IMG/VR virus record: IMGVR_UViG_3300015263_000944
Coordinates: 43,395 to 107,394 of that record
Source: a virus
Direction: 5' to 3' (one strand)
DNA length: 64,000 nucleotides
Under the pieces are notes generated by a model. It ran no database searches. It saw only the letters and a list, made by a program, of their open reading frames with translations, and had not been told where the DNA came from. This document shows positions 2,249-53,712 of this stretch, piece after piece. Each line of letters starts with the position of its first letter. The stretch's first letter is position 1. Both the position numbers and the translations under genes were made by a program.

Positions 2249-3541
2249 TTATGCGGCTTCTCCCCGTGACTCGCAGACGATCTTCTTCTCGCCTTTGACC
2301 ACAGACTCATCGATCACAATCTTCGCCGCTTTCGGGTTGGATGGCAAGTCGAAGTGAATGTCAGTCATCAGATCTTCCACCACACTCCGAAGAGCACGAG
2401 CCCCAGTGCCGAACTTGTGAGCCTTCTCGGCGATCATTCGCAGAGCACCATCTGTGAACTCCAGATCGAGCCCACTGTAGGCCAGCTTCTTTTCCTCTTG
2501 CTTGATGAGAGCGTTCTTCGGCTCGCTGAGCACCTGCACCAGATCGTCCACACTAAGTTCTTCGAGTGTGGCGATCACCGGCAGACGACCACACAATTCG
2601 GGGATCAGCCCGAACTCCATCAGATCGTGGTGGGTACATTGGGCCAGCAACTCGTTCTTCTCTTCGTTCTTCTCTTTGGTGGGTTGCTGTCCGAAGCCCA
2701 TCGCCCGGCGATTCATTCGCTTGCCGATGATGTCTTCCAGACCGTTGAATGCCCCACCGACGATGAAGAGGATGTTGGTGGTATCGATCTGGATGTATTG
2801 CTGCTCGGGGTGCTTTCTCCCACCCTGCGGAGGAACATTGGAGACGGTGCCTTCGATCATCTTCAGCAAGCTCTGTTGCACGCCTTCGCCACTCACGTCA
2901 CGAGTGATGCTGACGTTGCCACCAGTACGACCAATCTTGTCGATTTCGTCGATGTAGATGATTCCAGACTGGGCGGCGTCGATGTCGAAATCGGCAGCGA
3001 CGAGAAGTTTGAGGAGCAAATTTTCCACATCTTCGCCAACGTACCCAGCTTCGGTGAGGACGGTGGCATCACCGATGGCGAACGGAACTTGGAGCTTCTC
3101 GGCGAGGGAGCGGGCCAGCAGAGTCTTGCCGCTCCCTGTCGGGCCGATCAACACGATGTTCGACTTTTCGATTTCCACATCCTGCAACTCCTTACGCTTG
3201 ATGAGCGGAGTTGTATGGCCGTACCGCAACTCGCCGTCGATGAGACGCCGATAATGGTTGATGACCTGAACTGAGAGCTTCCGCTTCGCTGCATTCTGAC
3301 GGATCACATACTCGTCGAGATGCTCGTAAACATCTCGGGGCGAGGGGAGAGATTCCATCTGAGAGATGAGCGTAGGCTGACGAGACTTGCGTTCCTCTTG
3401 CTCGATGGCTTCATCGCAATTGGCGATGCAGTTCTTGCAAATGTACACACGGGCCTCATCGCCGTAGGCTTTGCCTTCGACAAGGGGGCCGACCTTGTTC
3501 TTGTCGCCCCCACAAAATCCACACTTGGGTCGTGTCTTCGC
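2249..3541 (-). CDS. clpX: ATP-dependent Clp protease ATP-binding subunit ClpX
   Basis: N-terminal C4 zinc finger (CGFCGG...CKNC). Walker A GPTGSGKT, and the typical ClpX sequence through the C-terminus. GAGGAGG lies 5 nt before the ATG at 3541; the longer ORF start at 3571 is less likely. Confidence 0.9.
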
Positions 3542-39163: not shown

Positions 39164-39928
39164 ATGCAAGCATCCTTTGTCGTTCGATTCCATAGCCGCC
39201 GTCTGGACAACCTTCACCAATTGCTCAGATTCTTGGAGAGATGGCATCACAACGTAATTTCAGAGTCCCAATTGGTCCTAGTTTGTCAGGACTCCTGCGA
39301 CCGAATCCCAAATGGCTTCGAGAGATACGACCACTTCAACATGGAACTCGACTGCATGAAGTTGCCAGTCGTTACAAATTTTGGAGTGGAAAAGTCACTG
39401 GCCGACAAGATTGTGTTGCTTGATGGTGATCGGGTGGCCCCCGCTGGATACTACCAGCGAGTTCTCAAACAAGTCGAGTTGGGCATTCAGATCACTTGCA
39501 AAAACATACAAAACTTGCCAAGGCCAACTGAGGATTGGGAGATCGAACGAGGCAAATACGATTATATCGAGGAGCATCGTAGTGAGGAAAAGATGCCGGG
39601 CCGGAAGTGCATGTGGTCTGGGAATACCACCTTCATGAAGCAGGATTTCTACCGAGCCGGTCGAATGGATGAAGCGTATCGTGGCTACGGGTTCGAGGAC
39701 CATGACATGACCTACACAATGGAGGCCGCTGGTGTCAAATCTATCTATCTGCCCGAAGAGATTGAACTTCATCTGTGGCACGAAAGACAAACGTATGGCG
39801 TAGGCGACGAGGCAACAAAAAAGGGAATGTTCATAGACAACGGATTGTTCTTCTGTAAGAAGTGGAAACAGCCGCTTCCAGAATTTCTAAGGGAAGACAT
39901 CGCCAATCACAGGAAGGCATGGATATGA
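39164..39928 (+). CDS. GT-A fold glycosyltransferase (DxD family paralog 3 of 3)
   Basis: IVLLDGDRVAP and GRMDEAYRGYGFEDHDMTYT blocks. Confidence 0.6.
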   Translation: MQASFVVRFHSRRLDNLHQLLRFLERWHHNVISESQLVLVCQDSCDRIPNGFERYDHFNMELDCMKLPVVTNFGVEKSLADKIVLLDGDRVAPAGYYQRVLKQVELGIQITCKNIQNLPRPTEDWEIERGKYDYIEEHRSEEKMPGRKCMWSGNTTFMKQDFYRAGRMDEAYRGYGFEDHDMTYTMEAAGVKSIYLPEEIELHLWHERQTYGVGDEATKKGMFIDNGLFFCKKWKQPLPEFLREDIANHRKAWI

Positions 39929-40860
39929 GAGATCACATCTATTATCACCAATGGTCCGAACTAGGCGATGGTCCACCATATTGTAATATGAGGTGCCCCA
40001 CCATCGTATCCATCGCAACACTTCGTGGCGTCAACCCAAATGTGCCCATCACCGTCTTGGACAAAAGCGAGACGCCTCAAGATTGGGGAGAATTTCCAGA
40101 GAAGCTAAACTTCGATGTAGCTCACGATCCGACGTTCTCGTGTGAACGATACAAAAATGTAGTCGCAGGATACAAACATCTGTCTCGTTTCCCAGACTTG
40201 GTGTCCTACACCAAAGACAAAGACGAACGAGTTGTGTATGTGGACGCCGATGTCTTCTGGTTTAGAGATCCCTTCCCACTGGCAGTTACATCGAGCAAAT
40301 TGTGTATCGATGGTTGGAACACGGGGTTCTTCTACTACGAGGCACGCTATGCCAACAAATGGTTTGATCCATTTGAGGCATACATGAAATCCGCCATCTA
40401 TTCAGAAGAGTTGCGGGATGTGCTTAAACAACACGTCAATTACGATGATTGGTATGTGGTGTTTGACGAACAGATCATCACATATCTCAAGAAGACAAAC
40501 CCACAACTCATTGAAATCATTCCAGATTGTGAGCACATCACCGGCAGTCGATTGGAAGAGCTTGATCCAGACACAGCGAAAATGCTTCACTTCAATGGCA
40601 TTATGGTGCATGACAACTATCATCGCACACGACATGCCAGAGGTCTAGCAGGCATCATCATCCAAGAGTTCTATGACAACATCTGTAAATCCCTCGACGC
40701 ATCCGACATCGAGAAGATTTTCACGCCACATGCTATGAGACTCTATGGGAGCAAACGATTCTCGCTCTTTAGGAATCTGGCTCGATTGTTAGAAACGAAA
40801 ACGGACAGGCTTTATCGTCTCGATAAATGCCTGTCCGTTCCACGACTCGATCTTATTTGA
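39925..40860 (+). CDS. Nucleotide-diphospho-sugar transferase family protein
   Basis: VVYVDADVFWFRDP DxD block. ATGA coupling with the upstream gene. Confidence 0.55.
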   Translation: MRDHIYYHQWSELGDGPPYCNMRCPTIVSIATLRGVNPNVPITVLDKSETPQDWGEFPEKLNFDVAHDPTFSCERYKNVVAGYKHLSRFPDLVSYTKDKDERVVYVDADVFWFRDPFPLAVTSSKLCIDGWNTGFFYYEARYANKWFDPFEAYMKSAIYSEELRDVLKQHVNYDDWYVVFDEQIITYLKKTNPQLIEIIPDCEHITGSRLEELDPDTAKMLHFNGIMVHDNYHRTRHARGLAGIIIQEFYDNICKSLDASDIEKIFTPHAMRLYGSKRFSLFRNLARLLETKTDRLYRLDKCLSVPRLDLI

Positions 40861-41622
40861 ACAGCAAGTCGAACTCACCCTTCATGATGCCCTTGACGTT
40901 TCCCGTCTTGGTGTCCAGCCGATGATCGACAACTCGGCTTTCCATGAAGTTGTAGGTGCGGATTTTCCCGCTCCGGTGGCCTCCCTGCAACTGTTCTTTC
41001 CTGTAGGCTGCGTACTCCGAATCAGCGGCCTCTTTGGCTTGTTCGTAGACACGGCCTTGAATGATCCGACGTGCTTCTCGCACATTGCTGTGGAAATCTC
41101 TGCCGTTAATAACAACCTTGATCCCTGTGGGGATGTGGGTCATTCGGCAGCCCGACATCGTTTTGTTCTGATGCTGTCCACCTTTACCGCCCAGATTGAC
41201 GGCCTCGATTTCCAGATCATTGTCGGCGATCTTCACATCCACTTCTGGCGGCAGTGGTAAAACTGCAACCGAGACGAAAGATGTCTGCTTACGGCCCTTG
41301 CTTTCCGTAGGTGGAATACGCTGGACACAGTGTTTGCCCGGCTCATGCCGGAACGCACGACCTGCGCCTTTGCCCCAGATACGGGCCATCATATGGCCGA
41401 AATCAGAGTGAATCAGTTCGGATTTCAGGTTCAGTGAGCGAGAATACCGTGCATAGGCTGCGAATAATTCGTCAACAAAGATCTTGCTGTCGTCGCCGCC
41501 CTCGCCGTGTCGGACCTCTAAGATGATCTCGTCGGCGTCAAAGAAACCTCCGCTCCTTCAGATCGGTAGCGGTTGGGGAGTTAAAGACACCTCCCGGCGT
41601 TTTTCTTGTGCTTCTTACCCAT
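40853..41622 (-). CDS. Peptide chain release factor 2-like protein lacking domain 1 (PrfH-like), expressed via programmed +1 frameshifting
   Basis: GGQ motif (GGKGGQHQNKT). RF2-like blocks LEVRHGEGG, HCVQRIPPTESKGRKQTSF and KIRTYNF. This frame is closed 6 codons upstream of the CTTTGAC site. The ATG at 41622 has an AAGGAGA RBS in another frame. Confidence 0.7.
41537..41556 (-). other. prfB-type +1 frameshift site 2 (GGAGG-TTT-CTT TGA C)
   Basis: SD-like GGAGG, a 3-nt spacer, then CUU UGA C. Homology to RF2 starts exactly at the codon after the shift. Confidence 0.6.
41580..41599 (-). other. Putative +1 frameshift site 1 (GGGAGG-TGT-CTT TAA C) at codon 13-14 of the ATG-initiated frame
   Basis: Same architecture as the E. 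coli prfB site, but with UAA. Confidence 0.4.
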
Positions 41623-41669
41623 GGTATTCTCCTTGTTGGAATTAGTGGGATCGTTCCCACCGGACATGT

Positions 41670-41697
41670 ATTATAGCCAACAAAAAACCAATTTCAA
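41670..41697 (-). promoter_or_regulatory. Strong sigma70-like promoter for the RF-like gene
   Basis: On the minus strand: TTGAAA, 16-nt spacer, TATAAT. It sits about 45 nt upstream of the ATG. Confidence 0.55.
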
Positions 41698-41743
41698 GTC
41701 CTAAATACGGAAAGGAACCAATCCGACAGCGAGGAATTGAGAG

Positions 41744-43102: not shown

Positions 43103-43723
43103 TCAATCATCGTCCCCGATGCCGACATTCCAATATGCCTCGCCCAAGAACGCTTCCCAGCTTTTCACTGGCTTCAGCGACTCAAACTTGAACAGGCTCA
43201 TCCGAGGCTTCTTCGGCTGCGAGAGCAGCTTCATACCGGCCTGCTTGGGCGTGCGGTCAGCCTTGCGACTGTTGCATTCCACACAAGCAAGGACACAGTT
43301 CTCCCAAGACGTTGCCCCACCCTGTGACCGAGGGATAACGTGCTCAATGGTCAATTCCGCAGAGCCGGGTCGGCAACCGCAGTATTGACACGTCATGTTG
43401 TCTCGCTTGTACAGAGTGCGTCGGCTGAAGTGGAGCTTCGGCTGAGGCATCTTGTCGTAACGAGTCAACAGGATGACTTCTGGGATTCTGAAAGCAACAT
43501 GCGCCGCTCGAAGAGCCTCATCAGTACACAGAGGCTTCAACTTGCTCCAGTCCTCCCATGTGAAGGTCTGGTAGCTTTCGTGATCGATGATGCGGGCTTT
43601 GGGCTCTCCATTCTTGTAGGTACTGAAGAGCATGATGATCGCTCGCTGAAGCGGCACAGTGCCGACTGGCGACCATCCTTTGTTGAGAACTAAGCATTTG
43701 CGTGAGTTGAGAGTGGTACTCAT
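43103..43723 (-). CDS. HNH endonuclease
   Basis: CQYCGC ... EHVIPRSQGG ... CVLACVECNSRK. GGAAGGAG RBS. Confidence 0.75.
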   Translation of the reverse strand: MSTTLNSRKCLVLNKGWSPVGTVPLQRAIIMLFSTYKNGEPKARIIDHESYQTFTWEDWSKLKPLCTDEALRAAHVAFRIPEVILLTRYDKMPQPKLHFSRRTLYKRDNMTCQYCGCRPGSAELTIEHVIPRSQGGATSWENCVLACVECNSRKADRTPKQAGMKLLSQPKKPRMSLFKFESLKPVKSWEAFLGEAYWNVGIGDDD

Positions 43724-53592: not shown

Positions 53593-53663
53593 GTACCCCC
53601 TAGAGGAGTCGAACCTCTTCTAAAACTTTAGGAAAGTCTTGTGCTTCCGTCACACTCAGGGGG
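53593..53663 (-). tRNA. tRNA-Arg (anticodon CCU)
   Basis: Manual cloverleaf fold. Acceptor GCCCCCT/AGGGGGT. D arm GTGT-GACGGAA-GCAC. Anticodon stem AGACT/AGTTT with loop TTCCTAA. T arm AGAGG-TTCGACT-CCTCT. Discriminator A. 71 nt without CCA. Confidence 0.65.
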
Positions 53664-53712
53664 CTCGGAATGTTGCATTGTAACATATCTAGCCGAAACA
53701 CTAAATATCTCT

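Follow-up and report, generated by a model that had tools for sequence, protein, structure and literature searches.

On its minus strand, a 64,000-nucleotide stretch of viral DNA (positions 43,395 to 107,394 of IMG/VR record IMGVR_UViG_3300015263_000944; this entire 64-kb stretch is called the window in the following) carries a gene that most likely encodes a 255-amino acid (aa) auxiliary class-I release factor derived from RF1, the synthesis of which would require two consecutive +1 frameshifts of the kind known from prfB, the gene for RF2. Judged from the sequence, the mechanism is the one known from prfB; what is new is the gene family, the sensor codons and the tandem arrangement. A first-pass annotation of this DNA had proposed tandem prfB-style +1 shifts as the only route to the protein, and this view has held: the layout is kept in 19 distinct relatives, and a single site of the same kind is present in 36 more.

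Three reading frames have to be joined at this locus (Table 1). A basic leader open reading frame (ORF) in frame 0 is followed by a short segment in frame +1 and by the release factor core in frame +2, giving a joined product of 13+14+228 = 255 aa, longer than the about 225 aa originally estimated. The predicted tryptic peptides spanning the shift junctions are CLNSPTATDLK and FLDADEIILEVR. Other elements had been read correctly from the start, namely the AAGGAGA Shine-Dalgarno (SD) sequence with ATG 41622 and the 13-codon frame running into GGGAGG-TGT-CTT-TAA-C, the promoter TTGAAA-16-TATAAT (41697..41670, 11/12 matches) and TGA 41560..41558, which closes the release factor frame six codons upstream of GGAGG-TTT-CTT-TGA-C. 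Equivalent promoters (TTGAAA/TTGATT-N17-TATAAT) are located upstream of the genes in the close relatives L191, L192 and L195, and an SD sequence and ATG precede the leader in nearly every one-site and two-site relative. Because the gene has its own promoter and because a hairpin with a U-tract terminator follows its stop codon, it constitutes a monocistronic unit. The terminator hairpin sits between convergent genes, the release factor gene and an ORF at 39862..40860, and is probably bidirectional; a mir-192 match, the only one in an Rfam scan of the locus, falls on this hairpin, is sub-threshold and was rejected as spurious.

Table 1. Elements of the release factor locus; all coordinates refer to the minus strand of the 64-kb window.
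Feature	Position	Strand	Details
Sigma-70-type promoter	41670..41697	-	TTGAAA (41697..41692), 16-nt spacer, TATAAT (41675..41670); 11/12 matches
Shine-Dalgarno sequence AAGGAGA	41628..41634	-	5 nt ahead of leader ATG (41622..41620)
Leader ORF, frame 0	41581..41622	-	MGKKHKKNAGRCL (13 codons), TAA at 41583..41581
Putative +1 frameshift site 1	41580..41594	-	GGAGG-TGT-CTT-TAA-C (G-GGAGG in full: GGGAGG); CTT 41586..41584, TAA 41583..41581
Inter-site segment, frame +1	41541..41582	-	NSPTATDLKERRFL, 14 codons, up to TGA 41540..41538
Putative +1 frameshift site 2	41537..41551	-	GGAGG-TTT-CTT-TGA-C; CTT 41543..41541, TGA 41540..41538; sequence as GGAGCGGAGG-TTT-CTT-TGA-C
TGA closing the release factor frame (+2)	41558..41560	-	six codons upstream of landing codon GAC 41539
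RF1-type core, frame +2	40853..41539	-	228 aa, TAA at 40855..40853; domains 2-4, PPT (PxT) and GGQ, without domain 1
Intrinsic terminator	40792..40836	-	15-bp interrupted hairpin (40836..40803), then U-rich tract; -28.8 kcal/mol, z = -6.7

Ribosomes initiating at ATG 41622 would read the 13-codon leader until CUU occupies the P site and UAA the A site, 3 nt downstream of the SD-like GGGAGG of site 1, where peptidyl-tRNA-Leu would re-pair from CUU to UUU and decoding would resume at AAC. The same event, 14 codons further on at GGAGG-UUU-CUU-UGA-C, would let decoding resume at GAC, the codon for the first residue of release factor domain 2. Both sites feature the prfB-type core, i.e., CUU for the P site, a following U, an in-frame stop codon and a +1 frame that is open downstream; both have an SD-like element ending 3 nt ahead of CUU (GGGAGG-TGT-CTT and GGAGG-TTT-CTT), both place the stop codon in a weak termination context with C as the next base (TAA-C and TGA-C), and each bears every sequence hallmark of the prfB shift. 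A UGA codon read only by the gene's own product is not found here, as site 1 holds UAA and site 2 holds UGA but the product is of the RF1 type. The 15-nt pattern GGAGGNNNCTTTRAC occurs twice on the two strands of the window, both times at this locus, against an expectation of 0.03, and two matches were reached in 0/100 shuffles. Folding of the leader RNA gave no significant structure (z = -1.0), and a structure-stimulated shift mechanism was dropped on this account; the lack of leader structure fits an SD-driven site of the prfB type.

A megablast search with 8 kb around the gene against a phage collection and an exact 48-nt search of IMG/VR with the leader from the window gave no match, and a single-protein scan of IMG/VR gave no close relative. 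The IMG/VR relatives considered here came from an alignment-based scan, and the DNA of relatives was drawn from IMG/VR, GTDB genomes and exact-protein look-ups. A search of 5.8 billion proteins returned more than 3,000 matches at E <= 1e-20; the top 120 proteins are all 178-284 aa long and their called N-termini are erratic. The gene calls P0002-P0120 show artefactual N-termini ('MSLA...', 'MFGEGG...') or begin at an internal Met, giving 178-180 aa, and database proteins of the family are labeled, where named, 'peptide chain release factor 1'. All loci were classed by a scripted upstream trace from domain 2, which distinguished the 19 distinct loci with two sites and the 36 with one site from about 40 with a plain SD sequence and ATG at domain 2 and from about 71 with full-length bacterial prfA. 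A metagenome scan had retrieved mostly such full-length prfA genes (36-43% identity), which were kept as negative controls and not as relatives. No credible site is present in the about 71 controls, in which there were two chance matches, both without a start codon, and one genuine prfB (L188) was recovered by the trace as a positive control.

The two-site relatives (50-83% aa identity) stem from independent metagenomes, huge-phage contigs and metagenome-assembled genomes (MAGs). All close relatives (L190-L198, 69-83% identity) possess two sites, the first of which reads [C/G]GGAGG-NNN-CTT-TAG-C, while the second, 8-15 codons on, consists of an SD-like element (mostly GGAGG) followed by NNN-CTT-TGA/TAG-C/T. 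The best phage-database relative shares 52% aa identity and lies in LR756511, a 595-kb record of an uncultured phage; here, AAAGGAGG..ATG is succeeded by a basic leader of 11 codons, then by TGT-CTT-TAA-C, a frame +1 stretch of 15 codons, CGT-CTT-TGA-C and finally domain 2. In a neighbor-joining tree, which can serve as a rough guide only, full-length prfA is separated from the short family, within which two-site and one-site genes are intermingled; this suggests that the second site has repeatedly been gained or lost.

All of the 73 family sites evaluated are CTT-T-stop, CTT having been required by the search itself, and the base after the stop codon is C in 61 of them. Among the 19 two-site loci, site 1 contains TAG in 14, TAA in three and TGA in two cases and site 2 contains TGA in 13 and TAG in six, the combinations being TAG/TGA (nine loci), TAG/TAG (five), TAA/TGA and TGA/TGA (two each) and TAA/TAG (one). 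Which stop codon a site contains was not correlated with the PxT-type motif. At site 1, at least four of the 6 nt that end 3 nt ahead of CTT are G in 17/19 loci; SD-like elements are common at the sites of relatives and not universal. The two sites are 25 to 70 nt apart, always with a spacing of 3n+1, and the 258 inter-site codons of the 19 loci contain no stop in frame +1, 17 in the release factor frame (all three kinds of stop codon) and ten in frame 0. The leader peptide follows the conserved pattern M[GS]K[KN]xK[KN]..[GR]R[CSL]L, and between close relatives its changes fall mainly at third codon positions of the proposed frame, the differences at codon positions 1/2/3 of its first four codons amounting to 26/36/66. 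Homologues of the inter-site peptide are found in L191, L194 and L196, again with a predominance of third-position changes. At the sites themselves, the exchange of TGT for TGC ahead of the first CTT is synonymous (Cys) in frame 0 and would convert Ser to Pro in the release factor frame, and TTT/TTC ahead of the second CTT is synonymous in frame +1.

These patterns bear on two explanations that do without programmed double shifting. A ribosome hop with take-off at CUU-UAA and landing 43-44 nt on at the second CUU/UUU, by which the inter-site codons (NSPTATDLKERRF) would be skipped, could make use of identical take-off and landing codons, each of which is followed by a stop codon, and its 43-nt gap resembles the 50 nt spanned by the ribosome hop in T4 gene 60. 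We consider a hop very unlikely, as frame +1 is open in 19/19 loci while the other frames contain about 5% stops per codon, the inter-site peptide is conserved with changes mostly at third positions, the spacing varies, the leader lacks significant RNA structure and an SD-like element lies 3 nt before the second CUU, just where a ribosome translating through the segment would need it. The second explanation, a pseudogene or assembly or sequencing indels without any programming, could draw on the fact that gene callers give truncated products only (e.g., the 178-aa P0001) and on the indel errors that do occur in metagenome assemblies. It is nevertheless extremely unlikely that the same breaks would recur at identical motifs in 19 distinct loci, which stem from separate samples and separate assemblers, accompanied by compensating divergence, by a variable 3n+1 spacing, by an intact and conserved release factor core and by a 15-nt motif that far exceeds its chance expectation.

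By the layout of the frames, both shifts are needed, and neither a single shift nor an alternative start or readthrough would join them. It could be argued that no frameshift is involved at all and that translation starts in the release factor frame, either at GTG 41591 with readthrough of TGA 41560 or at the internal ATG 41392; several database homologues are indeed called from 'MSLA...' with an open release factor frame, and an in-frame TGA is present in the leader of one relative (L013). However, N-termini such as 'MSLA' and 'MPLA' result from frame-2 readings of A-TGT/TGC-CTT-TAG-C, GTG 41591 (the 'VSLT/MSLA' start) overlaps the SD-like GGGAGG, leaving zero spacer, and a start at ATG 41392 would cost the protein 49 conserved, RF1-aligned residues of domain 2. 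Together with the 17 inter-site stops in the release factor frame, this makes a no-shift route extremely improbable. A start codon with a ribosome-binding site overlooked in another frame, which the first-pass annotation had named as a finding that would overturn its reading, did not emerge either: GTG 41591 has no spacer to GGGAGG, and the release factor frame is devoid of starts between TGA 41560 and domain 2. Throughout the family, the release factor frame lacks a start codon in the short open stretch upstream of site 2 in 17/19 two-site loci and frame +1 lacks one upstream of site 1 in 11/19. Because start codons are missing in the frames in which they would be needed, single-shift, no-shift and re-initiation routes fail family-wide. 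This also speaks against a reading in which each of the short ORFs encodes an upstream peptide with a regulatory role of its own and the core is translated by re-initiation or from a non-canonical start. Short upstream ORFs commonly regulate downstream genes and the internal GGAGG could in principle serve as an SD sequence, but between TGA 41560 and domain 2 the release factor frame contains no ATG, GTG or TTG, the sole TTG in the vicinity of site 2 belongs to frame 0, where a stop follows after seven codons, and CTT-T-stop-C, the invariant heptamer, is known from prfB as a signal for shifting and not for initiation. We therefore attach very little probability to independent upstream peptides.

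Some relatives feature deviating leaders. In L013 (IMGVR_UViG_3300038492_000258, about 2470..2500), the leader reads ATG AAG AAT CAG TGA AGA GGA AAC GAC...; its TGA shares the frame of domain 2, CTT is absent, and the same control may be exerted here in a version based on readthrough or TGA recoding. L025 has TTA-GTT-TGA-A (about 2485..2510), with GUU in place of CUU, and in L036/L038 a GTC-TGT-CTT-TGA-G site (about 2480..2510) abuts the first strand of domain 2. In L192 and L198, TTT-CTT-TAA-C-AAC is conserved in the 5' untranslated region about 30 nt upstream of the leader ATG; the script called it a third shift site, which we rejected since it lies upstream of the SD sequence and ATG, and it is probably a coincidence or a remnant.

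The encoded protein was originally described as RF2/PrfH-like. The profile comparison with the PrfH and RF2 families that had been proposed as a check was run and places both below their cut-offs, with 56.6 bits (cut-off 166.65) for PrfH (TIGR03072) and 145.3 bits (cut-off 370) for NCBIfam RF2, while the RF1 models score highest with 226.7 bits (NF001859, cut-off 400) and 220.9 bits (TIGR00019, cut-off 423); the ArfB profile matches only marginally. Pfam recognizes the PCRF (6.8e-22) and RF-1 (1.9e-22) domains in the product. Every NCBIfam alignment begins at residue 28, which immediately follows the second shift, so that the earlier statement that homology sets in directly behind this shift was accurate as to position, the closest family being RF1 and not RF2. 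The absence of domain 1, likewise noted before, follows from the profile alignments, which begin at position 102-114 of the models (102-110 in both RF1 models). The protein contains GGQ, and its tripeptide is PPT, a PxT motif of the RF1 kind, not the SPF of RF2. The best sequence match in the Protein Data Bank (PDB) is RF1 from T. maritima, followed by RF1 from E. coli and T. thermophilus, mitochondrial RF1 and RF2. An AlphaFold (AF2) model of the core (m51f8b671b5ed, 40853..41539) reached a pLDDT of 93.7 and superimposes on 70S ribosome-bound RF1 of T. thermophilus and E. coli with a TM-score of 0.94-0.95 and a root-mean-square deviation (rmsd) of 1.4-1.5 A. The model thus adopts the open, ribosome-bound RF1 conformation, the TM-score against the closed crystal form of free RF1 being about 0.56, and the closed state may have been removed by the loss of domain 1. 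On the basis of the NCBIfam ranking, the PPT motif, the PDB matches and the superposition of the model, the protein is best viewed as an RF1-derived, domain-1-less paralogue, homologous neither to RF2 nor to PrfH in the sense of family membership.

Even if decoding occurs as proposed, the product could serve to rescue damaged or stalled ribosomes in the manner of PrfH or ArfB instead of terminating translation in response to stop codons. It shares the lack of domain 1 with PrfH, Gln replaces the equivalent of His193, and phages and their hosts contest the translation apparatus. The low PrfH score, the marginal ArfB match and the retention of the decoding residues (PxT, Gln181, Thr194 and GGxD-type) render this unlikely, as does the genomic neighborhood: an RtcB gene is absent near the window locus, and clustering of the genes flanking the relatives revealed neither RtcB nor another conserved partner, with only an HNH endonuclease recurring and the rest being clade-specific. 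PrfH itself (RF-H) is of similar length and also without domain 1; the similarity is weak, prfH is linked to RtcB and is devoid of a frameshift. In 2006, Baranov reportedly described PrfH as lacking the standard stop-codon recognition motif.

If the gene is expressed as we propose, with two prfB-type shifts leading to an RF1-type factor, +1 slippage would compete with termination at the stop codon of each site, so that the yield of the factor would be the product of two termination-sensitive steps. The factor would be made when termination is slow both at UGA and at UAA, the latter being replaced by UAG in most relatives, and because it is a class-I release factor, feedback via termination efficiency is plausible. 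Sites with UAG or UAA could allow self-feedback by a product that, as an RF1-type factor, would be expected to release peptides at these two codons. UGA sites would report on host RF2 rather than on the factor itself, unless its specificity has changed. It is conceivable that a two-input gate on both termination arms results, in which the first site senses the capacity for RF1-type termination, to which the factor itself would contribute, the UGA of the second site senses RF2 capacity and the auxiliary factor is made only if both host termination arms fail; alternatively, the factor might read all three stop codons, with feedback at both sites. This part of the proposal is tentative, and in either version we consider it possible but somewhat doubtful.

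Several observations weigh against the proposed role. Canonical RF1 does not read UGA, a difficulty for 13/19 two-site and 14 one-site loci, and for this reason site 2 would provide no self-feedback unless the specificity differs. TGA is the commonest stop in the window (38 of 78 genes, compared with 27 TAA and 13 TAG) and would not be served by an RF1-type factor. The equivalent of His193 is Gln in the product, which makes its stop-codon specificity uncertain. Site 2 is without an SD-like element in L001 and L007. As to the carrier, phage hallmarks (capsid, terminase, tail) were not found among roughly 25 window ORFs scanned, and PHROG scans of 10 of the window ORFs for such hallmarks returned FolD only. 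A role in TGA reassignment is unlikely at the window locus, because the window, about 90% of which is coding, uses the standard code.

Frameshift autoregulation has been shown for prfB and not for prfA, and a survey from 2025, which covered over 12,000 genomes, never found TAG as the premature stop at the prfB site (PMC12421855). A recoding review from 2016 knew of no UAG/RF1 counterpart and mentioned only a giant-virus release factor gene needing frameshift and readthrough (PMC5009743). The gene described here shares with prfB and its autoregulatory +1 shift (Craigen & Caskey, 1986; surveyed in PMC12421855) the identity of the signal, with an SD-like element 3 nt upstream, CUU, U, stop codon and C, as well as the encoded activity of a class-I release factor. 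It differs in being of the RF1 type without domain 1, in having the sites in a short, non-homologous basic leader whereas the prfB site lies inside domain 1, and in using two serial sites with UAA, UAG or UGA as the stop codon. With bacterial RF1 (prfA) it has in common the PCRF and RF-1 domains, PxT and GGQ as well as the best profile, PDB and fold matches; in contrast to prfA, domain 1 (about 100 aa) is absent, the scores remain below the NCBIfam equivalog cut-offs, and in the short family the equivalent of His193 is often Gln and that of Ile192 Lys or Arg. Programmed frameshifting is reportedly missing in prfA (PMC12421855, PMC5009743). The class-I (eRF1-type) release factor gene of Mimivirus and Megavirus, which needs a frameshift and readthrough (Jeudy et al., 2012, PMC3521657), is the closest precedent in that virus-type termination factors pass two internal stop codons by recoding in both cases, and its recoding has been interpreted as autoregulation in the bacterial style (PMC3521657). 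That gene, however, functions with a eukaryotic host and does not rely on two prfB-type +1 shifts. The first-pass annotation had taken a factor of the present kind to be undescribed. This stands insofar as no prior description of a domain-1-less, frameshifted RF1 family was found in the searchable literature, and is to be qualified insofar as the Mimivirus gene also needs two recoding events (PMC3521657).

RF1 and RF2 genes are listed for huge phages and for phages with recoded stop codons in two reports (PMC7162821; bioRxiv 10.1101/2021.08.26.457843). Term searches found frameshifting mentioned in neither and, in the one so searched, no mention of truncation. All of these are phage-borne class-I release factors, as is the best phage-database relative of our gene in LR756511. 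In the model for recoded phages, RF1 is tied to TGA reassignment, whereas the window has the standard code with TGA as the commonest stop. If the two-input gate exists, it would be without precedent in bacteria or phages, both as an autoregulatory frameshift of the RF1 type and as a natural sensor built on tandem +1 shifts; so far, feedback by +1 frameshifting has been regarded as a peculiarity of prfB. The gene is a member of a large family of RF1 paralogues without domain 1, hitherto mis-annotated and present in huge phages and some bacteria. The prfB signal appears to be used in this family either singly or as two serial copies, with UAG, UAA or UGA as the stop codon, which would offer a natural test bed for the effects of stop codon identity, SD spacing and serial sites on frameshift efficiency. 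For large phages, the locus suggests a means of monitoring host termination capacity and of adding to it. Public protein sets systematically truncate these short release factor genes.

The window is likely of phage origin and stems from what is likely a very large phage. Its source contig was identified as Ga0247387_10000286 (JGI 3300022562; 100.7 kb). It encodes glycosyltransferase-like and DUF707 proteins, an HNH endonuclease, a radical SAM protein, ParB, a PRPP synthase-like protein, FolD, a helicase and many ORFans, with PHROG matches for helicase, ParB, ATPase, FolD and radical SAM, a gene content typical of accessory regions of huge phages. Two-site relatives are carried by IMG/VR contigs 100-530 kb long, by LR756511 and by a contig of 693 kb (L197). 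One-site relatives with CTT-TAG-C (L178, L180 and L186) are located among cellular genes on Obscuribacterales/Oculatellaceae MAG contigs of 0.4-1.1 Mb, surrounded by genes for SDR and SLH-domain proteins, ECF sigma/anti-sigma factors and DprA. As these one-site relatives sit among ordinary cellular genes, the family is not exclusively viral.

The HNH endonuclease is encoded at 43103..43723 on the minus strand of the window (Pfam HNH, 1e-15), and homologues of it lie within 0.2-1.6 kb of the short release factor gene at nine distinct loci, including plain-start ones. The release factor cassette may therefore travel with a homing endonuclease. A suppressor tRNA was not found in the window, the sole tRNA gene of which is that for tRNA-Arg(CCT) (53593..53664, minus strand). 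Between 15000 and 40900, the window consists of a long run of ORFs of 250-340 aa on alternating strands, mostly without family match and with a few that are glycosyltransferase- or DUF707-like. The close relative L191 has the same neighbors, i.e., genes for HNH endonuclease, glycosyltransferase, DUF707 and sulfotransferase-like proteins.

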